From: an uncultured Myxococcales bacterium
GTDB lineage: Bacteria; Myxococcota_A; Polyangia; Fen-1088
Assembly: GCA_964616265.1 (NCBI GenBank)
Contig: CAZTTW010000002.1
Location: 1-30,660 of the forward strand
Reading direction: 5' to 3'
Length of the DNA stretch: 30,660 nt
Translations under genes and position numbers: made by a program
Shown here: positions 731-26,363 of the stretch, piece by piece
How the letters are laid out: the number at the start of each line of letters is the position of its first letter
How positions within the stretch are numbered: the stretch's first letter is position 1
Notes under the pieces: generated by a model
The model's database searches: none
What the model was told of the DNA's origin: nothing
The model's input: only the letters and a program-made list of their open reading frames with translations

Positions 731-791
731 TGGGTCTCCTTCGACGCTCTCCCGATAAAGTCCCTCCGAAAGGAGGATTTGCTGGCGCTTG

Positions 792-864
<73 letters not shown>

Positions 865-1067: not shown

Positions 1068-1141
1068 GCGCCCGTAGCTCAACTGGATAGAGCATCGGCC
1101 TTCGAAGCCGAGGGCTGGGGGTTCGATTCCCTCCGGGCGCG
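1068..1141 (+). tRNA. tRNA-Arg (UCG), CCA not encoded
   Basis: GCGCCCG TA GCTC AACTGGATA GAGC A TCGGC CTTCGAA GCCGA GGGCT GGGGG TTCGATT CCCTC CGGGCGC G; anticodon TCG at 1102-1104; A20 arginine identity element in the D-loop; followed by CCG. Confidence 0.96.
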
Positions 1142-1191
1142 CCGACCTTGATCTGCTGATTTTCCAGGAGGAGCCGATACCGCCTAGCACG

Positions 1192-2757
1192 CTACCCGGC
1201 GGCCCCGTCCATCAGCACCATCCCCGCCACCATGTCTACCGAGATTTGCTCCAGAGCTCGTCTGACCGTGCGGCTGTGCACGCCGGAGCGAACGACCATC
1301 ACCACTGCATCCACGGAGTCATGGATAATCGAAATGTCGCCGCTTTGGAGTATGGACGGCCCATCGACTACGACGTAGTCAAAGGCGCAGCGCCAGCGCG
1401 CAATGGATGCCGAGAAGGTTGGACCGTGAAGACCTTCGCCACCGATGGCATCCGGCGCCACGGCTAGAACGTGCAAAGCGGTGGGCCGCAGCTCCGTGGT
1501 CAGCCATGGAGCATCGATCTGTTCCCGGTGGGCAGCCATCTGTGCGTCAAAAGAGCGCACTTGTCGAAGCCCAAAAATCTCCGCCAGCCTCGGGCGACGC
1601 AGGTTAGCCTCGACCAGCAGAACACTGAGGCGACCCGACTCGGCCAAGGCCAGCGCAAGATTGGCAGCACACGTGGTCTTTCCTTCGCCGTCCTGCGCAC
1701 TCGTCACTAGGATCGCACGCGGATCCTTCTGCTCCGCGAGTCGCCGCCGCAAAGCTCGAAACGCGGCTGCTCGTTCGGTGCTCCCATCCATCAGCATGGG
1801 CAGGTCGAGCTCGTCAGTATCCGAAAGCGCGAACGGGGTTGCCTCTATCCGCGCCGGAACCACCCGGTAGTTTGCAGCGAGCACCGCAGGCCGCGCCGAG
1901 CGCAGGGTTGTTGATGGTACTGGTCTTGCTGTCCCAACCGAAATAGCTGTACCCATCGTCGATACAACCGAAGGCGAAGACGCTGGAGACGATACCGCCG
2001 TCGGAATCGATTTCTGAACCGGAATGCCTGAGGCCACAGCCCCGGCACGCGCTCGCACTGCTTCGAGCATCGACCCATCTAGCAGGATGGTCTTTGAGCT
2101 GCCGCTTCCATCCACTTCCTTGTCTTTTGCTGGCGTGGCCGGCTTTGGAGCAGGCTGCGCCGCGGGAGGATCAGGGGATTCTCGACGAATCGCCGGCGTC
2201 ATAGTCCGGACCGGAGCGGACGAGTCGACGGCAACGGTCACCACGGTCGATGGATTTGCTGGTGTGGCCGATCGAGGCATCGTCGCGCGACCGGGTACAG
2301 ATGCGGCCGACGGACCAGACGGCGTCAGGGTCCGCGCCGGCTCAGCTGGGACTGGCACCGCAGCCACTTGGATCGAAGATGGGTTTGATGGAGCCGACGG
2401 CGTCATGGTTCGCGTCAGCGGAAGCGGGCGCCCTCCGGGTGCCGGTGCGCCCGTGGGTGGAGCCACCGAGGGTGGACTTGACGGCGTGACAGTCCGCACC
2501 GGCGCGTCCGATGGCTTGGCTGCAGGCGAGGAATAGGCGGGAGTAGCAGTTCGCACCGGAGGCGATGCTCCCGGTCCCCGCAGACCTGAAAGCGAAGTGG
2601 TCCCTACGCCTTCGGACCCGGACCGAGGCTTCGATGGAGTCGACCCGATGGCTCCACGCGAAGGCACGTCCGGAAGCGACTGGATCACCTTGGAAGAGGC
2701 GGAGCCGGTCGACACGTTCGGGTGCAAGCGCGGATCTTCGATCTTGGGATCAGCCAT
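1192..2757 (-). CDS. Stand-alone CpsD/CapB (BY-kinase-like, probably pseudokinase) ATPase with ~310-aa Pro/Ser/Thr/Ala-rich N-terminal extension
   Basis: C-terminal ~200 aa has AFRALRRRL, Walker A SAQDGEGKTT, A'-like LLVEANLRRP, Walker B FDYVVVDGPS and VDAVVMVVR, as in BY-kinases. No TM segment and no C-terminal Tyr cluster. Confidence 0.88.
   Translation of the reverse strand: MADPKIEDPRLHPNVSTGSASSKVIQSLPDVPSRGAIGSTPSKPRSGSEGVGTTSLSGLRGPGASPPVRTATPAYSSPAAKPSDAPVRTVTPSSPPSVAPPTGAPAPGGRPLPLTRTMTPSAPSNPSSIQVAAVPVPAEPARTLTPSGPSAASVPGRATMPRSATPANPSTVVTVAVDSSAPVRTMTPAIRRESPDPPAAQPAPKPATPAKDKEVDGSGSSKTILLDGSMLEAVRARAGAVASGIPVQKSIPTAVSSPASSPSVVSTMGTAISVGTARPVPSTTLRSARPAVLAANYRVVPARIEATPFALSDTDELDLPMLMDGSTERAAAFRALRRRLAEQKDPRAILVTSAQDGEGKTTCAANLALALAESGRLSVLLVEANLRRPRLAEIFGLRQVRSFDAQMAAHREQIDAPWLTTELRPTALHVLAVAPDAIGGEGLHGPTFSASIARWRCAFDYVVVDGPSILQSGDISIIHDSVDAVVMVVRSGVHSRTVRRALEQISVDMVAGMVLMDGAAG
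2194..2553 (-). repeat. Six dispersed R-[TS]-x-T-P peptide repeats in the disordered N-terminus
   Basis: PVRTATP (R69), PVRTVTP (R88), LTRTMTP (R116), PARTLTP (R142), MPRSATP (R162), PVRTMTP (R184); spacing 19-28 aa. Confidence 0.85.
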
Positions 2758-2937
2758 GTTGTCGGGTCTCGTACTTCGATAAGTTCAGCCATGCTCGACC
2801 GGCCGCAGACCTCGTCAACCGAGGAATGCGCGGCCTTAGGTTAGCATGTCCAAGAATAGCGCATGTTCGAACACGCAACCGTTCTAGAAGAGCTAGCCTT
2901 CCGAAGCTGCCGCGCTACGGACGAGAGACTCGGCTCG

Positions 2938-3249
2938 TCATCGAGCCACCTCACGGATGAGAACCCTGTCAAGATGCAGCAAGCGGAGGATGGCCAGAGG
3001 TTGATCGCGAACGCCATCCACGACCAGATTGCCTCCGTATGCACGGACCACCTTGAACAAAGCCACGATCGCTCCCACGCCCGAGCTGTCGATCAGACGG
3101 AGGCGGGAAAGGTCGACGACCATCTTCGGCGGCCTCTCTTCGCCTACCTGGCTGATGAGCGGTCTGAGCTCGACAACCGAGAGCGCGTCTAGCTCACCTT
3201 CGATAACAAGTACGGAAACGCCATTCTGTGTGCTGAGATGAAAGTGCAT
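2938..3249 (-). CDS. STAS-domain anti-sigma-factor antagonist (RsbV/SpoIIAA-like)
   Basis: VLVIEGELDA...MVVDLSRLRLIDSSGVGAIV with the conserved phospho-acceptor DSSG motif; ~103 aa from ATG 3249 (ORF track extends to 3261). Confidence 0.93.
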   Translation of the reverse strand: MHFHLSTQNGVSVLVIEGELDALSVVELRPLISQVGEERPPKMVVDLSRLRLIDSSGVGAIVALFKVVRAYGGNLVVDGVRDQPLAILRLLHLDRVLIREVAR

Positions 3250-3273
3250 GTTAATAGTCAATAAGAAGAAGCA

Positions 3274-3777
3274 CTAGCTCGCCTTGCCTTCGGTCAGACC
3301 GACGCGATTGGGCCCGTTCCCATCGTCTCCGTCAAGCCGTTTCACAAGTGTAAGAATGTTGGGCGGGCCAGCAGTATATGAAACTTCGTCAACGAACGAT
3401 CGCATGATAAAGACACCAAGGCCCGACTCCGGAAGAGCCTCCAAGTCAGGCGGTGGTGCTTGGAATGGGTCGAAGCTGGCGCCCAAATCACTGATTGTAA
3501 TCCGCATCCAGTCAAAGCTGCTTTCGATCTGCATCCTAACCGATCCGATCTCTCGGCCAGCGTAGCCATGCAAAACGATGTTGTTGTATGCTTCGCCGAT
3601 GGCGGACACCATATGTGCGGTGAACTCAGAGCAGCGCGATGCGTGACTGCGACTATCAGGAATCATCAATTTGCAAGCGGAAGACACTGTGCGCAACACC
3701 ACGTCTCTATATTCGATTCTCCCTGGTACTTCCAGGCGGATGATGTTGCAGCCGTTCGCGCGGGTGAATTCAATCAT
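3274..3777 (-). CDS. RsbW/SpoIIAB-like anti-sigma factor Ser kinase (HATPase_c)
   Basis: N-box AIGEAYNNIVLHGY, G1 ITISDLGASFDP, G2 ESGLGVFIMRSFVDEVSY; ATG 3777 preferred over TTG 3807. Confidence 0.92.
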   Translation of the reverse strand: MIEFTRANGCNIIRLEVPGRIEYRDVVLRTVSSACKLMIPDSRSHASRCSEFTAHMVSAIGEAYNNIVLHGYAGREIGSVRMQIESSFDWMRITISDLGASFDPFQAPPPDLEALPESGLGVFIMRSFVDEVSYTAGPPNILTLVKRLDGDDGNGPNRVGLTEGKAS

Positions 3778-3822
3778 CGTTTCCACTGCCCCGGGACGCC
3801 CTAACAACGAGTTCGCGCAGCC

Positions 3823-4551
3823 GTGAGGACGTCAGTTCGGATTGCCAAGCGGGCATTTGACCTTCTCGCCGCAAGCATTGGGCTGGCGGTGACAGCTCCA
3901 TTATATCCCATAATCGCTGCGTTAATCTACCGAGAGTCTCCTGGTGATGTGTTCTTCAGGCAGCGCCGAGCGGGTCGCCTGCTGGGTCCCGACCCTCGCT
4001 CGCTTCACCATTTTCGTTTCCAAGAGTTCAACATCATCAAGTTCCGCACGATGAAGCTGGACGCTGAAGCCAAGACAGGCGCCGTGATTGCGGCTGAGAA
4101 CGATGACCGAGTCCTCCGAATCGGAAGCTTTCTCCGCCGTACGCGCCTGGACGAGCTTCCTCAGCTTTGGAACGTACTGCGTGGTGATATGAGCCTGGTC
4201 GGACCGCGTCCAGAGCGGCCCGAGTTGATCGGGAACCTTGCACTGGCCATACCCTTCTTCGAGGAGCGGATGCGCGGTGTCAGGCCGGGGCTGACGGGGC
4301 TGGCCCAGGTATCGCTGGGCTACACAGGACGACCGCGTCCCAACAGCAAAATCGAGGCGTACATGAGTTCCCTCACGAACCCGTTCAAAGTGGAGGGTAC
4401 CGAGGGCGCCCTGGCGGATGACATGCGCATCAAGGCGCTCTACGACTTTGCCTACGGCGCAGCCATTGAAGACTTCTTCTCGTTTGTCCGCATGGAAGCG
4501 TGGATCCTTTGGCAAACGCCGTTGGCCGTGCTCAGGAGAACAGGGCGCTGA
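3823..4551 (+). CDS. Small monotopic phosphoglycosyl transferase (Bac_transf sugar transferase, priming enzyme)
   Basis: KRAFDL...FFRQRRAG...IKFRTM...RIGSFLRRTRLDELPQLWNVLRGDMSLVGPRPERP...PGLTGLAQV; catalytic DE dyad intact. Confidence 0.95.
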   Translation: MRTSVRIAKRAFDLLAASIGLAVTAPLYPIIAALIYRESPGDVFFRQRRAGRLLGPDPRSLHHFRFQEFNIIKFRTMKLDAEAKTGAVIAAENDDRVLRIGSFLRRTRLDELPQLWNVLRGDMSLVGPRPERPELIGNLALAIPFFEERMRGVRPGLTGLAQVSLGYTGRPRPNSKIEAYMSSLTNPFKVEGTEGALADDMRIKALYDFAYGAAIEDFFSFVRMEAWILWQTPLAVLRRTGR

Positions 4552-4560
4552 GCTGAGCGC

Positions 4561-5823
4561 CTAGAAGCGCGCGGGGTACTGCGCCTCGACCGTGAACACC
4601 ACCAACTGGCGACGAAATGAGGCGAACGGCGAGGCGCCGACGGCAGAAGATACGGCGGATGCACGTTGGTCGCGAAAGGTGTAGTCGAGGCCATAGGTAA
4701 ACAGGTGTCCCGGCATCCAGCGCAGTCCGAGGTGAGTCGCAAAGACCTTGGCGGTGCCTCCCGCTCCGTTGGCGAGGGCCGAGGCGGAGTCGCTTTCCAA
4801 ATCCGCGGCTGCGAGAAACTGCAGCAGCTCGTACCGATCAAGCGGGAGAGCGATATTTAGGCCGACGAGACTGCGTTGATAGACCGTAGCAACGTAGATA
4901 CTGTCGCCTACGGATTGTTCCGCGCGTAGCCCGACCTCGCGTCCAACACGCCGCCAGAGAATGGCTGCGGATTCTGTTGGAAACACATGCACGTGATCTG
5001 TTCGTAGGAAGAGCACGCCTGCGGCTAGCTCGTGTGTGAGCTCTGCGGTCCACTCGTGTCTCCAGGTCGACTCCAACTGGGCAAACTGGCCGTCGCGGGC
5101 TGCGGTCGTGGCCTGTCCCGCCGTCGTGGGCTGTCCCGCCGTGGTGAGCTGTCCTGCCTGTGTGTTGTTGGTCGCGATGGCGCCCAATCGACCTCGCAGA
5201 CCGCCCGAGTCGCGCTGCCACAGGTGACTGATCGCGGCGCCCAGGATGAGACTTTTGTTCGAGCCCGATCCCTGGTCGCTGCCGAGCGGGCGATACATCC
5301 CGCCATCGAGGGACTGGGCGATGCTCCACGATCCGCCGAGTTGCCAGGAAAAAGCCTCGTCCGCGCTAAGAGACAAGAATTTCTGATCCCCGGCGGGACG
5401 AGGCCCAACCGTCTGCGGATTGGTGGTCGAAGTAGCGTCCAGCATCGACAGCTGCATCAACGCGGCGGATCCCCTCAGAGTGATTCGCGCCGCCGGGCTG
5501 GCCTCGATATCACTCGACAGGCTCAGCGTTTGCGCAAGAACGGAGCTTTGTGTATTCCCCGTCCACGAGGTAGCCATAATGGCATAGGCGATCTGTTCTT
5601 GGGTCAGTCGGCCGATATGACCCAACTCAAGGCGTCCTTGGGCCGTCACAAACCCAGCGGCCGAATGGGCCGTCGCATCCGGCTGCGACGTCGGATTGTC
5701 GCTTGCGCCGACCGAGCTACCCGCAAAGACATGGTACGCAACTTCGGCATGTCCGAAACGTGCCATCCCAAGCAGGATCACGATGAAGGCTGCACTCGGC
5801 AGGGAGGGAAAGCGTCCCATCAT
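4561..5823 (-). CDS. Probable outer-membrane beta-barrel, EpsX/Wzp-like OPX partner
   Basis: Signal peptide MMGRFPSLPSAAFIVILLGMARFGHA|EVA; many amphipathic alternating beta-strand-like segments; ends RQLVVFTVEAQYPARF with terminal Phe; lies in an EPS locus with a short OPX. ORF track start 5865 is probably too long. Confidence 0.68.
   Translation of the reverse strand: MMGRFPSLPSAAFIVILLGMARFGHAEVAYHVFAGSSVGASDNPTSQPDATAHSAAGFVTAQGRLELGHIGRLTQEQIAYAIMATSWTGNTQSSVLAQTLSLSSDIEASPAARITLRGSAALMQLSMLDATSTTNPQTVGPRPAGDQKFLSLSADEAFSWQLGGSWSIAQSLDGGMYRPLGSDQGSGSNKSLILGAAISHLWQRDSGGLRGRLGAIATNNTQAGQLTTAGQPTTAGQATTAARDGQFAQLESTWRHEWTAELTHELAAGVLFLRTDHVHVFPTESAAILWRRVGREVGLRAEQSVGDSIYVATVYQRSLVGLNIALPLDRYELLQFLAAADLESDSASALANGAGGTAKVFATHLGLRWMPGHLFTYGLDYTFRDQRASAVSSAVGASPFASFRRQLVVFTVEAQYPARF
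5102..5155. repeat. 3 x 18-bp imperfect in-frame tandem repeat (AGQxTT x3) inside the barrel gene
   Basis: GCGGTCGTGGCCTGTCCC / GCCGTCGTGGGCTGTCCC / GCCGTGGTGAGCTGTCCT; protein reads AGQLTTAGQPTTAGQATT. Confidence 0.9.
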
Positions 5824-5922
5824 AGGAGGTGCGAACCATAACACGAAGGGACCACGCCACAGCATACTGCCGGCGCAGACGTGCGAGCCAACGGTCGCGC
5901 AGGCCGCTCTCCAGCGAATGCG

Positions 5923-7185: not shown

Positions 7186-8283
7186 CTAAACCGTTGCGGA
7201 GCGCATCTTCTTTTCCAGGCGCTCGCGCAACCGCAGGATGGGTTTCTCGACAAGATGGTAACTCACGGTAGCGGCCGCGAATGCGAGGCCGATGTTCACC
7301 GGAAACGTGGTGAACCAGCGCGTGTGGTACCGGCACAGGAAGAGTTGCTGCCAAAGGTACAGCGAGTAGGACACCACCCCGACCCAGACCAACGGCCAAC
7401 TGTTTAGAAGTCTCCCGATCGGCGATTCATGAAATCGGATCGACCAGTCGACGCACATGGCAACCCCCACGTTGACAACGGTCCGCCCGGCCAGCAACGA
7501 CAGGCCGACGCTCGGGACGAGGGTGTGGCTGGCCACGACGATCAGCGGGACGAGCACGAACCACGGTGACTCGAGAATCGCCCGGTATCGGTCGTTGTCC
7601 CACAGCCGCTGCCGGAGGATGGCGAGGACACAACCCGTGGCGAGCGCGTCGAAGACGAACGGGAACCCCTGATCGACCAGCGGGCGCTGGGCAGGCCAAA
7701 AGTAGTAGAGCGTCACGCGGAACAACGGCGCCGCGAGCATCGCGCCTACCGAGATCCGAAGGCCGCCCGCGACCCCAAGGTAGGCCACCGCTGCGGGCCA
7801 TAGCAGATAGAATTGCTCCTCTACAGCGAGCGACCAGGTATGGCCCAGCCACCAGGTGTGGTCGGCGCGGAAATTCATTGTGTATGTCGCCGCGGCCAGA
7901 ACGTCCGCGTGACTGAGCTGCACCCGCACCTGCTCGTTCGCGCCCGCCAGAATGCCCATCGCTCCGAGAGCGACAACGACTGCTAGGAAGACGTACATCG
8001 CCGGAAAGATCCGCAGCGTGCGCCGGAAGTAGAACATTTTCAGAGAGATGGTCCCCGCGCGGTCTTTCTCCTTCAATAGAAGGCCGGTGATGAGGTAGCC
8101 AGAGATCACGAAGAACACCGTGACGCCCAATGCTCCCCACGCGAACGGCAGCCATTGCACGGGAAGGCCCGCCGTGCCGAGCAAATGGCCGAGCAGCACC
8201 ATCACGATGGAAATGGCCCGAAGTCCGTCGAGCGACGGGATTCGTTTCGAAGCGCCGTCCTTCAGCAAAGCGCGAGGGCCCAT
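7186..8283 (-). CDS. Acyltransferase family 3 (OafA/NodX-like O-acyltransferase, AT3 domain only)
   Basis: RIPSLDGLRAIS, GVTVFFVISGYLIT, FYFRRTLRIFP, HTWSLAVEEQFYLLWP, SYSLYLWQ; polytopic; no fused SGNH domain. Confidence 0.95.
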   Translation of the reverse strand: MGPRALLKDGASKRIPSLDGLRAISIVMVLLGHLLGTAGLPVQWLPFAWGALGVTVFFVISGYLITGLLLKEKDRAGTISLKMFYFRRTLRIFPAMYVFLAVVVALGAMGILAGANEQVRVQLSHADVLAAATYTMNFRADHTWWLGHTWSLAVEEQFYLLWPAAVAYLGVAGGLRISVGAMLAAPLFRVTLYYFWPAQRPLVDQGFPFVFDALATGCVLAILRQRLWDNDRYRAILESPWFVLVPLIVVASHTLVPSVGLSLLAGRTVVNVGVAMCVDWSIRFHESPIGRLLNSWPLVWVGVVSYSLYLWQQLFLCRYHTRWFTTFPVNIGLAFAAATVSYHLVEKPILRLRERLEKKMRSATV

Positions 8284-8488
8284 CGTGCTCGTGACCAGCG
8301 GTCGCTAGCCGGCAATGGCCGTCCTCCGTTGGGAGGGAAAACACGGGAGGAGTTGGCGGGTGCCACGAGGCGCGAGTCTTAGCACGGGACCCGAACCAAG
8401 ATGATCGAAAGCGCCCCGAATCACGACGAGCGGTCGTGCGCGTGGCGCATTTTTTTGTTCATTTTGATGACGAAAGGCCTGTGGTACC

Positions 8489-8516
8489 TTGCAGTCTTTG
8501 CAAACGCAACTATCCT
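8489..8516 (+). promoter_or_regulatory. Candidate sigma70-type promoter for the dehydrogenase operon, overlapped by a TTGCA-N5-TGCAA palindrome
   Basis: TTGCAG (8489-8494)-N16-TATCCT (8511-8516), 17 nt before ATG 8534; T-rich tract upstream at 8450-8466. Confidence 0.45.
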
Positions 8517-8533
8517 GAGAGGCTGGAAAAGAC

Positions 8534-9859
8534 ATGACTTCCCTTGCGGATAAGATCGCGAATAAGTCGGCTGTTATAGGCGTAATCGGCCAAGGCTACG
8601 TTGGGCTACCTCTTGCGCTCGTCTTCTGGGAGGCTGGATTCAAGGTCGTCGGTTTCGACGTCGACAAGAAGAAGGTTGAGCTCCTAAACAAGGGCGAATC
8701 GTTCATCAAGCATGTCGGTCCGCAGCGCGTTGCATCCGCGGTACGCAGTGGCGCCTTCTCGGCGACTTCCGACTTCGATCGATTGAGCGAGTGCGATGCG
8801 ATTCTGATCTGCGTTCCGACGCCGCTGGGAAAGCATCGCGAACCCGACAACTCGTACATTCACGCAACGGCGCGAGAGATTTCGCGGCGTCTGCGGCCTG
8901 GGCAACTGGTCGTTCTCGAGTCCACTACGTACCCGGGCACCACCGACGAAGAGGTCTTGCCGATCCTTGAAGAGAGCGGCCTCAAGTCGCCAGCGGACTT
9001 CTTCCTCGCCTTCTCGCCCGAGCGGGAAGATCCCGGAAACCAAAACTTCTCGACGCGAACCATTCCCAAGGTCGTGGGTGGCATCAACAACGAATCGACC
9101 GAGGTGGCAGTTGCCCTGTACCGTGCGGGCCTCGATCGCGTTGTGCAGGTTTCCCATTCGCGGGTCGCGGAATCGACCAAGCTGCTCGAAAATATTTTTC
9201 GCTCGGTCAACATCGCGCTGGTCAACGAGCTCAAGATGACATTCTTGACCATGGGCATCGACGTTTGGGAAGTGATCGCAGCGGCGAGCACGAAGCCATT
9301 CGGCTACATGCCGTTCTATCCTGGCCCAGGACTCGGCGGACATTGCATTCCGCTCGACCCCTTCTATTTGTCTTGGAAGGCGGCGGAGCACGGAATCTGG
9401 ACGCGCTTCATAGAGCTTGCCGGCGAGATCAACACCCAGATGCCACGCTTCGTGATCTCGCGGGTCGCGGACGCGTTGAACGAAGACGGCAAGGCACTCA
9501 AAGGTTCTCGAGTGCTGCTGCTTGGTCTCTCTTACAAGGCAAACATCGACGATCCTCGCGAATCGCCTTCGTTCGAGCTGATGGAAAAGCTGACCGAAGC
9601 GGGTGCAATCGTGCAGTACTGCGACCCGTACTTTCCCGAGATGCCTCACATGCGCAAGTACGACTTCGCGCTTCGTTCAGTTCCGTGCACAGCAGAGGCT
9701 TTTGCCAAGTTTGATGCGGTGGTTGTGGCGACTGCCCATGATGAATTCAAAGACCCTGCGCTGTATCGAAACGTGAAGCTGCTGGTGGACACTCGCAACA
9801 TGATCGCACCACTGATGAAGGATCGAGGGCCGACTTATGGACGCCTCGTCAAGGCTTAG
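8534..9859 (+). CDS. wbpA: Nucleotide-sugar dehydrogenase, WbpA-like UDP-N-acetyl-D-glucosamine 6-dehydrogenase
   Basis: Rossmann VIGQGYVGLPLA; ICVPTPL; LESTTYPGTT; SPEREDPGN; KLLENIFRSVNIALVNE; catalytic GPGLGGHCIPLDP; YKANIDDPRESP. Closely colinear with P. aeruginosa WbpA as recalled. Confidence 0.92.
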   Translation: MTSLADKIANKSAVIGVIGQGYVGLPLALVFWEAGFKVVGFDVDKKKVELLNKGESFIKHVGPQRVASAVRSGAFSATSDFDRLSECDAILICVPTPLGKHREPDNSYIHATAREISRRLRPGQLVVLESTTYPGTTDEEVLPILEESGLKSPADFFLAFSPEREDPGNQNFSTRTIPKVVGGINNESTEVAVALYRAGLDRVVQVSHSRVAESTKLLENIFRSVNIALVNELKMTFLTMGIDVWEVIAAASTKPFGYMPFYPGPGLGGHCIPLDPFYLSWKAAEHGIWTRFIELAGEINTQMPRFVISRVADALNEDGKALKGSRVLLLGLSYKANIDDPRESPSFELMEKLTEAGAIVQYCDPYFPEMPHMRKYDFALRSVPCTAEAFAKFDAVVVATAHDEFKDPALYRNVKLLVDTRNMIAPLMKDRGPTYGRLVKA

Positions 9860-12305: not shown

Positions 12306-14540
12306 CTATCGATCATACGCGCCTCGATCATGGCCGGTGCCCTGGGGCGCCGGATTTGCCGAAAACCCGTAAGGCCTCGGCCCGAGGGGAGCCGACCCAC
12401 TGTTGATACATTCGGATCCGTTCAACAGACTGAAATCGGTGCCGGCGTTCGCGAATTTCGGATCGCCGTAGGTACCGGTCGCGTCCTCAGATGCCTTCGA
12501 TCTGTGTCTTCCGTTGGCATCGTAGTATTGGTTATTTCGGAACGTATCCTGTCCTACGTCGATGGCCACGAAGTCGCCGGAGTGATTGTAAGGAGAGCCA
12601 AAAGGCAGCATGAAAATGTTGTTGCGAACATCAACCGTCTTCCCGCTGGTGCCACCGTCGTCGTAATAGCCGTACCTGCGGCCATTGCCCAGTCGATCCC
12701 AACCATAGATGACGTTGTTGTACACCCTGATGTTGTTGTTCGCGGTTGTGGCGGCTCCGACGATCCGAATGCCGGCCTCGCCCGAGTAGAGGACGATGTT
12801 GTCGTACCAAACGGCCGAATCGGTCATGTTGCCCTGGTTGAGGCCGTGCTTGTTCGCATTCTCGACCCAGTTGTGGTGGACGGAGATCTTCTGCAGCGTC
12901 TCGTCCGATTGCGAATCGTAGGTCTGGATGCCGTTACCCGCCGTCAGATTTCGAATGGTATTGAAGGCCACCACCACATCCCTGGCAGAGTGGGTCGAGC
13001 CATCGAGGTAGATGCCGTGGTTTTGATTGTCCGCCACAACTCCCCCGATGTCATGGATGTAGTTGGCGGCGATGACCATATGGTACCCATTGCCCGCGAT
13101 ACCAGCGGCATTGGTGATATTGGCGGCGTTGGACTTCCAGGGCCAGGTTAGCTCTGTGTTGATCACTCGACAGTAGTCACAAGAACTGTCGAGATTAATC
13201 GGCGCGGCATCACGAGCACCGTACTGAGATGACGAGATGAAGATGCGCGACCACGCAAACCACTTGGCATAAGGCGCACTACCATCATAGGGATTGGCAG
13301 TCGTCGCGCGGGCATTGTCATTGGCGATGAAACCGCCGCCGCCCGCGTCGTGGCCGGTACTGGCGGTCGGGTAGAACGAGGCCAGCTCAGGCAAGTTCGC
13401 TCCCGCTGCGCCAGGGTACGACGTGATGCAGATCGGACCGCGATTTCTCGCTCCCGTGGGTGCGGTTCCGCCGATACGGAAGAGATTGGCCACGAAGTAA
13501 CCGTCACCGGCGTATTTATAGTCGCCACCTCTCACCACGACATAGGTCCCGGGCGGCGTGCCGTCCTTGGCCGTATCGCCTCTGGCCTTGCGAAGCGCTC
13601 CGGAAAATCCGTCGCTGCTCTGGACGTGCTGGTACGGATGGGAAAACGAGCCATCGTTGGCATCCCCGCCGTTCACGATATCGACAAAGTAGATGCTCCC
13701 TGGCTGGACCATCCACGTCAGCGAATCGGCGGTGCCGTCATACTTGGTCAGCAGACTCACGTAGTTGCCGCTGGCATCGGTGGCATTGGACGGGCGCACT
13801 CCGTTTACGGTCATGTCGATCTTGAGTGCTGTGCCATTGGCTGCCGCCCCGCAAAGAGGACCGACCTGCACGCCAAGCACATGGAGTCCCATCAGGTTGG
13901 CCGCTTTGCTGTTCGTCCCGCCAAGCAGCGGCTGCAGGAAGCGATAGTTGGCCACTTCACAACCGCCGATATACAGGTGGCTCGTCGAGCCCCAATCGGA
14001 AAAGTTGCCAAAGTTCTTTCCGATGACACTCAGGTAAGCGCCCTTGCCACCCTCCCCACCCGATGTCGGGCCGGAAATGAAATCGGTGAACAGCATGAGC
14101 GGCGCATCGTTGTTGGAGCATGTAACAAGAATGTTCGTGATGTTGCTCGTCCCGACTGCGCCGCTACCGTTCATGACAATGCAGGTTTGCGCCGTCGGCT
14201 GAGTACGAACGGTGATCGAGTAGCTCGTATTGACGGGAACCGAAAACGAATACGTGCCATTGGCGGACAGTGCGAGAGGATTAGTGCCGTTGTTCTGCAA
14301 CACCACTCTCTTCCCAACTCCTAGGTTCGAGAGCTTTCCGCCTACCGTGACGGTGCCTGCCAGACCGCCAACTGCTTGGCCACGTGCCCCCTCCACTGTG
14401 GTCAAGCTTCCGCCCCCCTCGGGGCGTTTAGAGCCATCGCAAGTGCTACTTGCCGTCACCAAGACCGTGGCAGCCAAGAGTCCGGCGAATAGTTGAAGGC
14501 CGATCTCAGAGATAACAATACGAGGAAAGGTCATTCTCAT
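12306..14540 (-). CDS. Exported modular protein: Ig-like module + IPT/TIG-like module + right-handed beta-helix (pectin-lyase-like) + DRGAY-type C-terminus
   Basis: N-terminal hydrophobic segment; VVLQNNG...ANGTYSF...QPTAQTCIVMNGSG...NILVTC module; FTDFISGPTSGGEGGKGAYLSVIGKNFG; beta-helix-type repeats (NYIHDIGG, NHGIYLDG, FNTIRN, GNGIQTY, HHNWVEN, YNNVIY, RNNIFM); ends DPKF...DRGAYDR. ORF track start 14594 is probably too long. Confidence 0.75.
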   Translation of the reverse strand: MRMTFPRIVISEIGLQLFAGLLAATVLVTASSTCDGSKRPEGGGSLTTVEGARGQAVGGLAGTVTVGGKLSNLGVGKRVVLQNNGTNPLALSANGTYSFSVPVNTSYSITVRTQPTAQTCIVMNGSGAVGTSNITNILVTCSNNDAPLMLFTDFISGPTSGGEGGKGAYLSVIGKNFGNFSDWGSTSHLYIGGCEVANYRFLQPLLGGTNSKAANLMGLHVLGVQVGPLCGAAANGTALKIDMTVNGVRPSNATDASGNYVSLLTKYDGTADSLTWMVQPGSIYFVDIVNGGDANDGSFSHPYQHVQSSDGFSGALRKARGDTAKDGTPPGTYVVVRGGDYKYAGDGYFVANLFRIGGTAPTGARNRGPICITSYPGAAGANLPELASFYPTASTGHDAGGGGFIANDNARATTANPYDGSAPYAKWFAWSRIFISSSQYGARDAAPINLDSSCDYCRVINTELTWPWKSNAANITNAAGIAGNGYHMVIAANYIHDIGGVVADNQNHGIYLDGSTHSARDVVVAFNTIRNLTAGNGIQTYDSQSDETLQKISVHHNWVENANKHGLNQGNMTDSAVWYDNIVLYSGEAGIRIVGAATTANNNIRVYNNVIYGWDRLGNGRRYGYYDDGGTSGKTVDVRNNIFMLPFGSPYNHSGDFVAIDVGQDTFRNNQYYDANGRHRSKASEDATGTYGDPKFANAGTDFSLLNGSECINSGSAPLGPRPYGFSANPAPQGTGHDRGAYDR

Positions 14541-14951
14541 CGGGGATGGCGGCAAGCAAGTCATGACAGTCCCCTGGCAATCGCAGCCGAGCACAGATTG
14601 AGACCGGTAACGACAAAACGAGTCAGGTTAGTCATCTTTGGGCGCCTTGGACCGGGGTAGAAGGCCGTACGCTTGGGCAGCCTACAGCCTGGCCTTGGAT
14701 GGTCTGAATAGTCAGGCTCGCACGGGCGGCCCATACCTTACTACCTTTGCACAACTAAGCAACCCGCACTGTCGAGGACAGCGGTAGTGAAGGCGCACTC
14801 GCATCCTTGGCTCATCCTCCCGCATTCGTCCGACGCAAGATCATGGCGGCGGCTCCACGGACAAAGTGCTGAAAGCGCGATAGCGCGACCTTATCCGAGT
14901 GGCGCGCTGGAGACTGGCCAAGTGCGACCATCCGCTGTAGATTCGCCGGCC

Positions 14952-16448
14952 TTGACGTCCGGTTCCCCACTCAAGCGTCTCCTTGTCCACGTCTCCCACT
15001 ACTCGTTGGCCAGCCTGCTGACGACGGTTGCCGGAGTCATCTCGTTTCCGTTCATGACTCGGGTCTTCAGCGTCGCTGAGTACGGGACCATCAACCTCAT
15101 TGCGGCGACCTTGACGTTGGCAGTCGCCGTCGGCAAAGTAGGCGTCCAGCACTCGGTGATCCGCTACCACAGTGAAATCGCGAGCGGGAAGCGGATCTTC
15201 AGTCTCGACCAACTCTATTCGACAACGCTCATCGGTATGGGGGCAACCGGGCTCGCCATGGGCGTCCTCCTCCTGGCCGCCACTCTCTTCGGCCCCGATC
15301 GTTGGTTCCATGCCATTCCCAACCTGCGCCTCTACTTTGCCATCAGCTCGGTGGTGTGCATGTCCCAGGTCCTCGAGAGCGTGGTCATCAATTTGGTCCG
15401 CGCCAAGCAGCTCACCACGCTGCTCATGGTGTACCAGGTCGTCAAGCGCTACGCGATGCTCGGCCTCGTCGTGGTCGGCGTACTGTTCGTCGCGCGGAGC
15501 CTCACGTCCTTCTACGCCGCCATGGTCTTCACCGAAGTCACGGCCATGCTGGTGCTCGCGCTCCACTTCTTTCGCAAACACGTCGACGCTCCCCTCAAGG
15601 CTTCCAGCTTCTCGTCGCCGCTCTATACCGAGCTACTTCGGTTTGGCATCCCCATGATGGTCGGTTACGAGCTCTCCGGCATCATCCTCTCGGTAGGCGA
15701 CCGCTACGTGATCGAAGGCATGATGGGCGGAGAGTCGCTCGGCCTCTACTCCGCCGCCTACAACCTCTGCGGATACGTCCAATCGGTGGTCATCTCGTCG
15801 GTCGGACAGGCCATCATGCCGATCTACATGCAGATGTGGGATCAGAAGGGGCGCGACGAGACGGCGGCCTTCATCAGCCGGTCACTTCGCACTTACTGCC
15901 TGTTCGCCGCCCCGGTGGTTGCGGGCATCGCCGCCGTCGGGCCCGAGCTTCTGCCGGCGCTCGCGTCCGCCAAGTACGCCAGCGCGGTGACGGTACTGCC
16001 ATGGGTGATCGGCGGCATGGTCCTCGACGGTATGACCGCCATGGTGGGTGCCGGTCTGTTCATTCATCGGAAAACCACCGTCATCGTGAGCATCATCATG
16101 TCGTGTGCGGTGCTCAACATCGGCCTGAACTTCTTGCTCATCCCGCCACTCGGCGTGGTCGGCGCCGCGATCGCGACGTTGGCTGCCTACGCCGCCATGA
16201 CGGTGGCGATGGCGCTCTTCAGCCACCGCTTGCTGCCGGTCCACTTGCCCTGGGCGTCGCTCGCGCGCTCCGGCGCAGCCTCGGCGATCATGTTTGCCGT
16301 CGTGTACTTCGTCTACCCTGGGCACCGGCTTCTCACCGTGGCAGTGCGGGCCATGCTGGGTGCGCTCGTCTACGCCGTGGTGATCGTCGCCATCGACGGG
16401 GACGCGCGGCAGCTCGCGCGTAAGCTGCGCGCGCGCCTCCGGCGCTGA
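14952..16448 (+). CDS. wzx: Wzx oligosaccharide flippase (MOP superfamily)
   Basis: ~12-14 hydrophobic segments; FPFMTRVFSVAEYGTINL, LLRFGIPM, GDRYVI, LGLYSAAYNL, LNIGLNFLLIPPLGVVGAAIAT. Start uncertain (TTG 14952 chosen; ORF track gives GTG 14787). Confidence 0.93.
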   Translation: MTSGSPLKRLLVHVSHYSLASLLTTVAGVISFPFMTRVFSVAEYGTINLIAATLTLAVAVGKVGVQHSVIRYHSEIASGKRIFSLDQLYSTTLIGMGATGLAMGVLLLAATLFGPDRWFHAIPNLRLYFAISSVVCMSQVLESVVINLVRAKQLTTLLMVYQVVKRYAMLGLVVVGVLFVARSLTSFYAAMVFTEVTAMLVLALHFFRKHVDAPLKASSFSSPLYTELLRFGIPMMVGYELSGIILSVGDRYVIEGMMGGESLGLYSAAYNLCGYVQSVVISSVGQAIMPIYMQMWDQKGRDETAAFISRSLRTYCLFAAPVVAGIAAVGPELLPALASAKYASAVTVLPWVIGGMVLDGMTAMVGAGLFIHRKTTVIVSIIMSCAVLNIGLNFLLIPPLGVVGAAIATLAAYAAMTVAMALFSHRLLPVHLPWASLARSGAASAIMFAVVYFVYPGHRLLTVAVRAMLGALVYAVVIVAIDGDARQLARKLRARLRR

Positions 16449-16584
16449 GCTGTCCACCGCGCGCGGCCCGAGTAGGGCGCGTGCCCGCGCTCCCACAGAA
16501 GCAACCGAAGTGGCACGTTGGCAAGCATGCCGTCCGGGAGCGCACTGTCCGCGCTGCCCGAAGAGGTCCCTCGGCCGGGCTCGG

Positions 16585-18207
16585 CTAGGTCGGCTTTCGG
16601 AGATAGAAAAACGTCGCGTACACGATGAAGACAACCACTACCAGCGCGCCGGCCATCACGGTGTGCAACCGGCTGCGCCGCTGTTCGCGGGGACTATGCG
16701 CGTGAGGAATGCTGACCAAGATAGGAAGGTTGGAACTCGCCTCGAGCTGGGCGCCGCTGCGGATCCGTCCGTCGAGCATGACAAGCGCGCATACGAGCCC
16801 GACCGGCAAGAGCGCGGCCACGAGTAGACCGATCAGGAGGATGTGAAGGAGGCGAATGCTCACCGGCGTCGTGGGCAACTCGGGCGGCTCCTGAACTTGC
16901 AAGCGAAGTCCGCGCTGCTCTGCCAGCTCCAAGGCGACACGCTGTTGCTCGCGGCGCTTGAGCAGCTCCTGATAGATATCTCGCGTCGCCTCGTAGCTAC
17001 GCAGAAGCTCGGCTATGGCCGCATCCTGCCGGACTCGCATATCCGGATCCGGTATGTTGCCGGGGACACCCGGGGTCAACCGCGCTCTCGGGTTACTGGG
17101 TGCCGCCGCGATCTCGGGGGGATCCGAGCGGGGACGTTCTCCTGTGACCGCCGCGATCTTCTTTTGGACTTCTTCAAGCCGCGATCGGGTGGCGCGTTTG
17201 ATGTCGTTCTCCATGGCGACGGCCGTCGCCTGGGCGTTCTCCCGCTCAGCCTTCGCCCGCGTGGCGTCGTCCTGGGCGCGCGCCAGCTCGCCGCGGAGCC
17301 TCTTCACGTCCGGGTGCTCATCGGTGTAGCTGGCGAGGAGTCGGTTGAGCTCGCCCTGGAGCTGCACGACTCGCTCGCGGTACCGGTTTTCTGTCTGTAC
17401 CAGGTCCGCAGAGACCGAGCTGCGAGTACGACCCAACTCTGCAGTGAGCGCGGCCTCCTCCTGGCGAAGATCTGCCAGCTCGTCAGAGGAGACTCGGCTT
17501 GCGCGTGGCGGCGACGTGCCACTCGACGTGTCGCTCGCGAGAGCGCGGATCGTGGGCGAGTGTCGGTGGACGGCACGTGGCATCTCGCTGCTCGGCCCGG
17601 GCAAGCTCACCTCGTGGGCGCGGTCGTAGGCCAACACCTGGTCGTGGATGGTCGCGAGCGTCTTAGAGTATTCCTTGACCTGACCGTCGACGAATTCGAA
17701 GTTGAAACGGCTTGTACTCTCCTCAGGGAGGACACTCTCCCGGATGTAGATATCGGTGAGCTTCTTAGCAAGCTCAAGAGCGCGCTGCGGCTGGGAATCG
17801 GAATAGGTGAGCGTGACGAGAGTGGGTCCGGTTGGGCCCGCCCCCGAACTGCTGATCGCGATGCGCGAGCGGAGCTGCGCGAGGAGCCGCTCCTCGGCTC
17901 GCGGATCCGACTGTGCCCCCCAGCCGCCCAGGGCTGCCAGTTCCCGGAGAATCCTCTTGCTCGTGATGATCTGGTTGACCAACGTGGAGTGGGGGGCCTC
18001 GGCCGTTCCCGTCCCGGGAGCGATGGTGCTTCTCGGCTCGACCAGAATTGTCGAGGAAGCGGAGTACTTCTTCGGCCAGTAGAAACCGACGCCCAGGGTC
18101 GCGAGGGCGGCAACGCAAAACAGCGAGGCGAGCGTAAGAATTCGCACCCGCCCCTCTTTGAGGACGAGTGCGAGGAACTCCTGTATGGGGACGGACTGTT
18201 GCGCCAT
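16585..18207 (-). CDS. wzc: Wzc/GumC-like polysaccharide co-polymerase without fused kinase domain
   Basis: TM1 followed by WPKKYSASSTILVE; long coiled-coil periplasmic region with YTDEHPDVKRL; TM2 followed by LDGRIRSGAQLEASSNLPILVSIP; extra C-terminal hydrophobic helix. Confidence 0.9.
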   Translation of the reverse strand: MAQQSVPIQEFLALVLKEGRVRILTLASLFCVAALATLGVGFYWPKKYSASSTILVEPRSTIAPGTGTAEAPHSTLVNQIITSKRILRELAALGGWGAQSDPRAEERLLAQLRSRIAISSSGAGPTGPTLVTLTYSDSQPQRALELAKKLTDIYIRESVLPEESTSRFNFEFVDGQVKEYSKTLATIHDQVLAYDRAHEVSLPGPSSEMPRAVHRHSPTIRALASDTSSGTSPPRASRVSSDELADLRQEEAALTAELGRTRSSVSADLVQTENRYRERVVQLQGELNRLLASYTDEHPDVKRLRGELARAQDDATRAKAERENAQATAVAMENDIKRATRSRLEEVQKKIAAVTGERPRSDPPEIAAAPSNPRARLTPGVPGNIPDPDMRVRQDAAIAELLRSYEATRDIYQELLKRREQQRVALELAEQRGLRLQVQEPPELPTTPVSIRLLHILLIGLLVAALLPVGLVCALVMLDGRIRSGAQLEASSNLPILVSIPHAHSPREQRRSRLHTVMAGALVVVVFIVYATFFYLRKPT

Positions 18208-19582: not shown

Positions 19583-19624
19583 AGAGTCTCAAGGCTCAGG
19601 CAAGAGTCTCAAGCGCTCAGGGCA
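19583..19624. repeat. Imperfect ~20-22 bp tandem duplication that includes the OPX stop codon
   Basis: AGAGTCTCAAGGCTCAGGCA (19583-19602) followed by AGAGTCTCAAGCGCTCAGGGCA (19603-19624). Confidence 0.8.
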
Positions 19625-20204
19625 GATAGACAGTGTCGCCCGCGACGATGACGAGATTCATCTCGGGACGCTTGCCACTGTAGATTGCGGCCAGGTCGAT
19701 GGGGATGCGACGGGTCCCGCCGGACGTGTTACGGATGAGCACAACGTTGGAAAGAGAGGCGAAGCGATTCGGCCCCCCGGCCATAGCGAGGGCCTCGGTA
19801 ACCGTCACAAAACGGTGCGAGGAGAACATTCCCTGATGTTCGGCGTTGCCCATTACCGTGAACTGGTAGCTGTTGACTTCGGACACGGCCACCGAGACTT
19901 GGACCGAGTCATCCTTGACGTAGGATTTGAGACGCGTCTCGATCTGGCTACGCAACGCTGAGGTCGTGCGTCCAGCAGCGGCCAAGTCACCGATGAGGGG
20001 CATGGTCAGGGTGCCGTCCGGTCGAACTCTGGCGTCGATGGACAGGTCGGGCATGTGCCACACGTTGATGCGCACCATATCTGCTACCCCGACCACGAAC
20101 TCCTTCAGACGTGGATCTGGCTCGCTGGCGTAGTCGAAGACCTGGTTGCTTGCGCATCCGAAAGCGGCCAGCAGCGCAGTCCAGAGAATCAAGTGTCGAG
20201 GCAC
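19617..20204 (-). CDS. wza: Short OPX (Wza-like) polysaccharide export lipoprotein, Poly_export + one SLBB domain, no C-terminal outer-membrane helix
   Basis: GTG 20204, lipobox LLAAFG-C; FVVGVADMVRINVW...VRPDGTLTMPLIGDLAAAGRT; VMGNAEHQG...EALAMAGG; ends NLVIVAGDTVYLP*. ORF track start 20411 is too long. Confidence 0.92.
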   Translation of the reverse strand: MPRHLILWTALLAAFGCASNQVFDYASEPDPRLKEFVVGVADMVRINVWHMPDLSIDARVRPDGTLTMPLIGDLAAAGRTTSALRSQIETRLKSYVKDDSVQVSVAVSEVNSYQFTVMGNAEHQGMFSSHRFVTVTEALAMAGGPNRFASLSNVVLIRNTSGGTRRIPIDLAAIYSGKRPEMNLVIVAGDTVYLP

Positions 20205-20485
20205 AATGGAGATTCTTATAACACAAGAAGCGCGACCGAGAATGTTGCAACGCCATTGGAAATTCCCATCTTGACGACTCGCGTTGATGAGGGTTATCGG
20301 GTCGGCGCGGTGCCAGTCTGGATGCTCTCGCCCGTTGGCGATTCCGGGCTTTGGTTCTGCGTCGCCGTCGAGCGAGGCCAGGCTGAAGTGGCAGCGCGTC
20401 CGTCCGTCCACCTACCAATGTCGTCCGGCGAACTACTCCGACCTGCGCTCCCTCCGCCAACAGACTCGTCGATGTAGTGCTAGTG

Positions 20486-26269: not shown

Positions 26270-26363
26270 ATGCCTATGATAACCGTTAAGCTTTCGACTA
26301 TGGCAAAAGGTAATCGAGCCGGGCAACTATAGCAGCGCCTACGCGTCCATCGCTTGCGTTGCC

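Follow-up and report, generated by a model that had tools for sequence, protein, structure and literature searches.

A conserved arginine- and threonine-specific motif array on the predicted disordered tail of a BY-kinase-like ATPase in a Polyangia polysaccharide gene cluster

We analysed a stretch of 30,660 nucleotides (nt; the whole stretch is referred to as the window) of contig CAZTTW010000002.1 from an uncultured Myxococcales bacterium of the Polyangia (assembly GCA_964616265.1). The window contains a polysaccharide gene cluster that includes, at positions 1192-2757 of the minus strand, a gene for a 521-residue stand-alone P-loop ATPase. This protein resembles bacterial tyrosine kinases (BY-kinases), as identified from its open reading frame (ORF) and from NCBIfam, PDB and Foldseek matches, and it has an N-terminal tail of ~300 amino acids (aa) that is predicted to be disordered. 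Six copies of an R[TS]xTP sequence in the tail constitute a conserved, Arg- and Thr-specific short linear motif. Below we describe the protein, its motif array, its relatives and its gene neighborhood, and we weigh the functions that the tail may have.

Results

Residues ~330-515 of the ATPase match the NCBIfam BY-kinase models TIGR03018 (3.5e-22), TIGR01007 and EpsG, all with bit scores below the curated cut-offs (78.8 against 230.65, 65.5 against 108 and 58.4 against 313.8, respectively). A phmmer search of the PDB matched VpsO, BceF, CapB, Etk and Wzc. We built an AlphaFold2 model on 29 family sequences, in which the predicted local distance difference test (pLDDT) score of the ATPase domain is ~82-95. 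The best Foldseek matches of this model are Wzc (3la6), CapA2B2 (4jmp), VpsO (6u1q), BceF (6z0p) and Etk (3cio), with E-values from 5e-11 to 1e-8 and a probability of 1.00. The model thus predicts the P-loop fold of the Wzc and CapB kinase domains. MinD models and structures score well under the BY-kinase ones, and the deviant Walker A motif of MinD and ParA proteins (KGGxGK[ST]) is not found: the corresponding sequence, AQDGEGKT, lacks the signature Lys. No hydrophobic segment was found in the ATPase.

The nucleotide-binding motifs are partly canonical. Walker A (SAQDGEGKT, aa 353-361; 1675-1701, minus strand) and Walker B (YVVVDGP; 1357-1377, minus strand) are intact, with G359, K360 and D465 invariant in alignments. 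Walker A' is a variant (VLLVEANLRRP; 1591-1623, minus strand). Aligned with LLIDCDLRKP of VpsO, LLIDADMRR of BceF and LIVDGDMRKP of CapB, it places E383 and N385 opposite the two catalytic Asp residues, so that E-x-N stands where the hhhhDxDxR pattern has its Asp pair. The whole protein contains three Tyr residues (Y75, Y297 and Y461), none of them in the last 40 residues, and the C-terminal Tyr-rich cluster is missing. The ATPase therefore departs from canonical BY-kinases in its Walker A' motif, its C-terminus and its scores relative to curated thresholds. Judging from these residues, Tyr autophosphorylation is probably not usable by this protein. A preliminary description, made from the DNA alone, had proposed a BY-kinase-like protein without a C-terminal Tyr cluster, and the database and structural matches agree with it on both points.

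The same description took the N-terminal ~310 residues to be disordered, and the model supports this. Residues 1-300 have block-mean pLDDT values of ~28-55 and no predicted secondary structure other than a helix at residues 230-241 (mean of the 231-240 block, 66). The tail ends in a strand (aa 304-310; 1828-1848, minus strand) that packs on the ATPase domain (mean of the 301-310 block, 93), and P301 and A302, just ahead of this strand, are conserved. The composition of the N-terminal 310 residues is biased (53 Pro, 46 Ala, 46 Ser and 29 Thr). The tail is thus predicted to be disordered and accessible. The possibility that the start codon is mis-called and the tail non-coding was excluded by the positions of the motifs in orthologues and by the N-terminal sequence M[AS]DPK, which is kept across orthologues and so supports the start of the 521-residue ORF.

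Translation places the six R[TS]xTP copies at 2194-2553 (minus strand, as are all copies below), exactly where they had been reported. They begin at residues 69, 88, 116, 142, 162 and 184, with start-to-start spacings of 19, 28, 26, 20 and 22 residues and divergent spacers. When the 310-residue N-terminus was shuffled 200,000 times with its composition kept, the mean was 0.08 copies and the maximum three; six copies never occurred. We compared the copies with the six closest full-length orthologues (clade A, 55-63% identity), one of which is the complete 520-aa ORF at locus L001. Copy 1 (RTATP, aa 69-73; 2539-2553) lies in the context PVRTATPAY, ending in Y75, and is the best conserved: its V, R, A, T, P, A and Y are the same in all six orthologues, where it is invariant as V-R-x-A-T-P-A-Y. 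Copy 2 (RTVTP, aa 88-92; 2482-2496) keeps R, T and P in five of the six. Copy 4 (RTLTP, aa 142-146; 2320-2334) retains T-P in all six and R in four, and copy 5 (RSATP, aa 162-166; 2260-2274) also retains T-P in all six. Copy 3 (RTMTP, aa 116-120; 2398-2412) lies in a region of insertions and deletions and is present in two orthologues, and copy 6 (RTMTP, aa 184-188; 2194-2208) is decaying or absent in most. Copies 1, 2, 4 and 5 are thus positionally conserved among spacers that vary in sequence and length, and mean identity across the six orthologues is 0.67 at the R, T and P core positions versus 0.25 in the rest of the tail.

The extended consensus is P-[VA]-R-x-x-T-P-[AS]-x-P, with preferences for Pro at -2, Val or Ala at -1, Ala or Ser at +5 and Pro at +7. 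Position 2 of the motif, the first Thr or Ser, is variable in relatives and can be Lys, Arg, Ile or Val. The only invariant Thr is the second one, which precedes Pro.

Tandem Repeats Finder detected no tandem DNA repeat at the array. DNA likeness among the copies is confined to the 25-nt motif-coding stretch, where it amounts to 68-80%, and codons differ between copies (ACT, ACC, ACG and ACA for Thr; CGA and CGG for Arg; CCC, CCG and CCA for Pro). The absence of a tandem repeat, the short extent of DNA similarity and the synonymous codon diversity rule out a recent duplication. Selection acts on the motif at the peptide level and not at the DNA level. The view that the motif is conserved and not recently duplicated, which the preliminary description had derived from its divergent spacers, is borne out by these results, and the motif search in orthologous N-termini that it had suggested as a check was positive.

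A whole-protein search identified 42 close relatives, nearly all of them metagenomic, and a profile search of 1.84 billion representatives identified 595 proteins at E<=1e-30. A scan of genome contigs with the single ATPase protein as query found no relative; an alignment-based scan found one close genome, the uncultured metagenome-assembled genome (MAG) MFD04752.bin.1.7, and distant Polyangia. The named genomes of the family are Polyangia MAGs and Sorangium, and the family is largely uncultured. Walker motifs could be parsed in 126 of the 184 top family members screened. Among these 126, Walker A' is ExN in 104 and DxN in 11, the rest being ExH, ExS, DxH or ExD, and a single member has Asp at the second position. 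None of the 126 has three or more Tyr in its last 25 residues. Since no parsed member carries a C-terminal Tyr cluster, loss of the Tyr switch is a trait of the whole family and not a peculiarity of this gene.

We identified further, separate arrays elsewhere in the family. Five relatives have three or four copies (P0012, P0017, P0019, P0030 and P0031) and one has six (P0013), with sequences such as PVRTTTPGF and PVRVPTPAR, and each array is significant against shuffles. Three members with less than 50% identity (P0130, P0160 and P0127) also carry significant arrays. Across 113 family N-termini, RxxTP occurs 94 times versus 17.5 expected (5.4-fold). RxxSP (25 versus 22, 1.1-fold) and KxxTP (7 versus 4.3) are not enriched in the same set. 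The preference of the motif for Thr over Ser, and for Arg over Lys, is therefore strict, and the flat count of RxxSP means that Thr is not interchangeable with Ser, as would be required of an array of FHA ligands. Strict Thr is a hallmark of FHA ligands and of Thr-preferring bacterial kinases.

Arrays of at least three copies were confined to this family among the six-frame ORFs of 134 loci, a set that is biased towards the family. Searching 5.8 billion proteins with just the tail (182 aa) as query gave no match, not even to the 99%-identical P0001, presumably owing to the composition filter of HMMER. Within the family the array is not universal. It is absent from a sister clade (clade B), which has a short tail starting M-x-E-Q-R-x-[DE]-N-T-P-T-Y-G-[YH]-R, and from distant Polyangia relatives, including Wzc-like fusions in Sorangium. 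Gene callers cut the tail short in several relatives, and database entries thus under-report the array. For example, P0009 was called at 329 aa (8001-8990 of locus L001), and its true ORF encodes 520 aa (7428-8990) with five motifs.

The strong composition bias of the tail, the existence of family members with short tails or no motifs, and the gain, loss or decay of copies 3 and 6 among orthologues would all be compatible with a tail that has no specific function, that is, a spacer or entropic bristle in which the motif is a relic of old internal duplications within a region rich in Pro, Ala, Ser and Thr. We consider this highly improbable: six copies never arise in shuffles of the same composition, the motif cores are more conserved than the rest of the tail, an Arg- and Thr-specific enrichment recurs in distant lineages, and the synonymous codon diversity speaks against recent duplication.

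The tail could also act on the ATPase itself. The invariance of Walker A, Walker B and E383 suggests that nucleotide binding still matters, and the Arg of the motif is likewise invariant. The Arg motifs might then work in cis or in trans on the ATPase ring, either as pseudo-substrates, comparable to the Tyr tails of Wzc and CapB, or as Arg-finger-like stimulators, comparable to ParG on ParF and MinE on MinD. The flexible tail of canonical BY-kinases enters the active site of a neighboring subunit (PMC12004946). A self-regulatory tail is nonetheless very unlikely here. Six copies are more than a single active site would need, and proteins whose domains are almost the same have anywhere from 0 to 6 copies. 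The AlphaFold2 model, a monomer and thus informative about action in cis only, places no motif on the domain (motif pLDDT ~45-55).

Two further elements are conserved in the tail. The preliminary description had pointed to a KTILL segment containing T223, and this segment lies at residues 222-226, followed by the sole predicted tail helix (MLEAVRARAGAV, aa 230-241; together 2035-2094, minus strand), as seen from AlphaFold2 and orthologue conservation. Across the family N-termini, the pattern of [KRQ]T and three subsequent hydrophobic residues shows an 11-fold enrichment. The whole segment KTILLDGSMLEAVRARA (aa 222-241, 2035-2094) is conserved in clade A and duplicated in the L001 protein; other clades have simpler [KQ]T-hydrophobic-LL units, at times right after RxxTP (VRTATPAKTLLL). 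The Thr of the KTILL-type element has Leu at +3, which matches the classical FHA preference.

The second element, TPxY, is enriched 9.5-fold across the family N-termini. It is the most widely shared tail element (TPAY, aa 72-75, 2533-2544 in the window) and takes the forms RxATPAY in clade A, NTPTYGY in clade B, RRDTPAYG in P0032 and KTPTYVE in P0160. Its Y75 is the sole Tyr among the first 296 residues of the ATPase. TPxY could be a relocated Tyr site or an FHA-type pT+3 ligand.

The remainder of the window encodes a Wzx/Wzy polysaccharide cluster, with GT2 and GT4 glycosyltransferases, a UDP-sugar dehydrogenase, acyltransferases, a deacetylase, a methyltransferase and a Wzx flippase. The gene directly upstream of the ATPase gene encodes a STAS anti-sigma antagonist (2938-3261, minus strand; Pfam STAS, 5e-15; NCBIfam ant_ant_sig), and the next encodes an RsbW-like Ser kinase (3274-3807, minus strand; Pfam HATPase_c_2, 3e-20; NCBIfam RsbW). 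A divergent gene follows for a small initiating phosphoglycosyl transferase (Bac_transf; 3823-4551, plus strand; Pfam PF02397, 8e-48). The RsbW-like/STAS synteny is kept at loci L003, L091, L093, L009, L134, L135, L136 and L140 of relatives, and L086 and L007 have STAS only. The triad of Bac_transf, RsbW-like and STAS genes (2938-4551) also occurs at L091, L093, L009, L134, L135, L136 and L140, with Bac_transf and STAS only at L007. It is conserved across the family irrespective of the tail array.

The STAS protein of the window has the usual DSSG phospho-site (LIDSSGVG). By analogy, the triad looks like a split form of the STAS-Bac_transf fusions that a partner switch regulates in cyanobacteria (All4160, XssP). 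The adjacent RsbW-like kinase is unlikely to phosphorylate the tail motif, since clade B has the pair of genes without the array and the locus of the closest genome (L005) has the array without the pair.

We identified a PCP-2-like polysaccharide co-polymerase of 540 aa (16585-18207, minus strand) by a weak GNVR match and three hydrophobic segments. It has no kinase or P-loop domain and is the presumed membrane partner of the ATPase; the co-polymerase gene adjoins the ATPase gene in relatives. The third hydrophobic segment lies at the extreme C-terminus (aa 512-538). From its sequence, a loop of ~30 residues after the second transmembrane segment (LPILVSIPHAHSPREQRRSR, containing LPILVSIPH) is the likely ATPase-binding element.

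The cluster also encodes a short Poly_export/SLBB protein of 264 aa (19617-20411, minus strand), recognized by its Poly_export/SLBB domain, and a 434-residue protein (4561-5865, minus strand) that has a signal-like N-terminus, ends in Phe, matches no Pfam family and is conserved in relatives. The exopolysaccharide (EPS) pathway of Myxococcus xanthus has a composite translocon of an outer membrane polysaccharide export (OPX) protein and a beta-barrel, and these two proteins are reminiscent of it. A 506-residue protein without a Pfam match (24806-26326, minus strand) is the most consistently ATPase-linked gene product at L001, L086, L091, L093, L008 and L009 (40-42% identity). Two large proteins (762 aa, 12306-14594; 688 aa, 20486-22552; both minus strand) have signal-like N-termini and no Pfam match; the 688-residue one has a long low-complexity stretch rich in Gly, Ala, Ser and Thr, and a related 606-residue protein is encoded beside Bac_transf at L001. 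Directly downstream of the ATPase gene lie genes for tRNA-Phe(GAA) (791-864, minus strand) and tRNA-Arg(TCG) (1068-1143, plus strand). These two tRNA genes mark the edge of the cluster, which could account for the absence here of a phosphatase gene that is found near relatives.

This phosphatase, an FHA-GAF-SpoIIE (PP2C) protein, is encoded near the ATPase gene at five loci of relatives. Its gene lies within the cluster at L134 (19461-21149), L135 (13783-15483) and L091 (~16092-17756), and tail-to-tail with the ATPase gene at L087 (1133-2788), where the ATPase belongs to clade A and has at least four motifs, and at L137 (11267-12913), the locus of the distant member P0032; all five genes are on the minus strand. 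STAS genes are absent within 10 kb at both L087 and L137. The FHA domain of the phosphatase retains the phospho-Thr-binding residues GR, SRxH and NGT. On the P0033 contig, a gene for a Hanks-type Ser/Thr kinase (Pkinase; 2364-3884) starts 2 bp after the ATPase gene (1196-2362) on the same strand, and the P0033 tail has three RxxTP copies (p=0.002). A 400-residue gene product, possibly the co-polymerase, is encoded upstream on this contig by a gene that overlaps the ATPase gene. Neither an FHA-PP2C gene nor a Hanks-type kinase gene was found within 10 kb at three clade-B loci, whose tails lack the array.

Discussion

We tentatively favor, with somewhat less than even confidence, the reading that the tail is a phospho-Thr signalling or docking platform that controls the polysaccharide machinery. 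The idea of a phosphorylated array gains circumstantial support because genes for FHA-PP2C proteins (five loci) and a Hanks-type kinase (one locus) lie near the ATPase genes of relatives.

According to this proposal, the ATPase would bind the co-polymerase at its cytoplasmic loop, in the way that CapB docks on CapA and EcpK on EpsV. A Hanks-type Ser/Thr kinase, its specificity set by the Arg at -3, would phosphorylate the Thr that precedes Pro. The FHA-GAF-PP2C phosphatase would bind and erase these phospho-Thr sites, and possibly the Thr-centered KT-hydrophobic-LL and TPxY elements as well, and the presence of several copies would allow graded, multivalent recruitment. The phosphorylated tail would in turn control the assembly or activity of the co-polymerase/ATPase complex and couple it to the STAS/RsbW-like partner switch, which probably governs the initiating sugar transferase.

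Several observations weigh against this proposal. Phosphorylation of the tail threonines is put forward from motif specificity and gene neighborhood, and Pro at +1 is disfavored by most non-CMGC Hanks-type kinases. Pkinase, FHA and PP2C domains are missing from all ORFs of the 30.7-kb window. Nor does the 21-kb locus of the closest genome (L005) encode a Hanks-type kinase, FHA protein or PP2C, and at L138 such genes are not within reach of the ATPase gene. The locus sample is small and phylogenetically non-independent. The presence of FHA-PP2C does not follow motif number, as P0007 (L135) and P0018 (L091) have no RxxTP, which makes a different Thr element, or a different protein, a potential ligand of the FHA domain. 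It may also be that the PP2C merely dephosphorylates the STAS protein. Finally, the precedents EcpK and HfsB are scaffolds without any phospho-switch (PMC12004946). We found nothing usable in the literature on proline-directed bacterial kinases or on myxobacterial phosphoproteome motifs.

Some of the same evidence would suit a docking array that is independent of phosphorylation, in which a cytoplasmic partner (a TPR, SH3-like or other peptide-binding module) binds every P-[VA]-R-x-x-T-P-[AS]-x-P unit in an extended or polyproline-II form and the array tethers or clusters the co-polymerase/ATPase complex. Arrays of TQT motifs that bind LC8 in eukaryotes provide a parallel. The conservation and specificity of the motif apply equally here, as a binding pocket would also explain strict Arg and Thr; the flanking Pro residues (-2/+4) and the disordered context suit a short linear motif that is bound in an extended form, and nearby genes for Ser/Thr signalling are lacking in both the window and L005. 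On the other hand, no candidate reader domain is conserved in the clusters, and the recurrent neighbors that recognize peptides are phospho-specific (FHA) or catalytic (Pkinase, PP2C). We regard this array, the main rival of the phospho-Thr platform, as possible and somewhat unlikely.

The phospho-Thr platform can be extended to the family as a whole. In these Polyangia proteins, Ser/Thr signalling would have replaced Tyr autophosphorylation as the switch of the PCP-2/BY-kinase system: a Hanks-type kinase would write on the RxxTP tail, the FHA-GAF-PP2C protein would read and erase, and the tail would physically tie polymerization and export to the STAS/RsbW switch of the initiating phosphoglycosyl transferase. 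We consider it unlikely that this extended scheme holds. The preliminary description had suggested that a Thr-Pro phospho-array may replace the Tyr cluster as the regulatory switch or serve as a multivalent docking tail. Circumstantial support for a phospho-array or docking tail comes from the Thr and Arg specificity and from the FHA-PP2C and Hanks-type kinase genes near relatives; a general replacement of the Tyr cluster does not stand, because the array-less sister clades (clade B) also lack the Tyr residues.

The closest described systems are EcpK of M. xanthus and HfsB of Caulobacter crescentus, two BY pseudokinases that stand alone and act as scaffolds for a PCP-2 without a kinase domain (PMC12004946). 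Like these proteins, the ATPase of the window is a stand-alone cytoplasmic BY-kinase fold with an unstructured N-terminus and no C-terminal Tyr tail, encoded in a Wzx/Wzy cluster with a kinase-less co-polymerase and, in this case, in a myxobacterial lineage. Unlike EcpK, which has no Walker A, A' or B motif at all and ends in a basic helix, it keeps invariant Walker A and B motifs, has only Walker A' altered (E-x-N), and ends right after the last strand. It thus shares with EcpK the BY fold without a Tyr tail and the kinase-less PCP-2, and not the loss of all Walker motifs. A long tail with a motif array has been described for neither EcpK nor HfsB. The retained Walker A and B motifs and the long motif-bearing tail are what is new with respect to BY-kinase-like scaffolds of this type.

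The ATPase resembles CapB/CapA of Staphylococcus aureus, Wzc and Etk of Escherichia coli, VpsO and BceF in its fold, its FRxLR helix, its Walker A and B motifs, the LRRP sequence after Walker A' and the location of its gene alongside that of a co-polymerase. It differs from canonical BY-kinases in having E-x-N in place of D-x-D, no Tyr cluster, NCBIfam scores below the cut-offs and a 300-residue tail with RxxTP motifs.

In the Mycobacterium tuberculosis transporter Rv1747, phospho-Thr sites in a disordered linker bind the protein's own FHA domains. The family described here similarly has a disordered segment with several conserved Thr residues, and an FHA protein and a Hanks-type kinase are encoded beside relatives. 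In contrast to Rv1747, a separate protein, the PP2C phosphatase, carries the FHA domain, Pro occupies position +1 of the motif, and phosphorylation in the window protein is putative.

STAS/RsbW-type switches that control polysaccharide synthesis include SypA/SypE in Vibrio fischeri (PMC4517449) and All4160/HenR/Alr3423 in Anabaena (bioRxiv 10.64898/2026.04.08.717354). As in those systems, a polysaccharide cluster contains, beside Bac_transf, genes for a STAS protein and an RsbW-like kinase, to which relatives add one for a SpoIIE-type phosphatase. STAS is fused to Bac_transf in Anabaena, whereas the two are separate neighboring genes in the window, and neither the SypA/SypE nor the Anabaena switch has a known link to a BY-kinase-like tail. 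There are several precedents for a Ser/Thr phosphatase or a partner switch that acts on polysaccharide synthesis, namely pssZ (PMC6071215), SypA/SypE (PMC4517449) and All4160/HenR (bioRxiv 10.64898/2026.04.08.717354), none of them via a tail on a kinase-like ATPase.

The work on EcpK and HfsB proposes cycles of binding and unbinding and names no trigger (PMC12004946). The family described here is a concrete candidate for how Wzx/Wzy pathways are switched when the kinase partner of the co-polymerase cannot phosphorylate Tyr. If the phospho-Thr platform is real, it would make eukaryote-like Ser/Thr signalling a direct input to the assembly of polysaccharide chains in myxobacteria, and bacterial short linear motifs would gain a defined example that is multivalent in architecture. 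If the tail is a plain docking array instead, the array would still mark the interface that positions such scaffolds.

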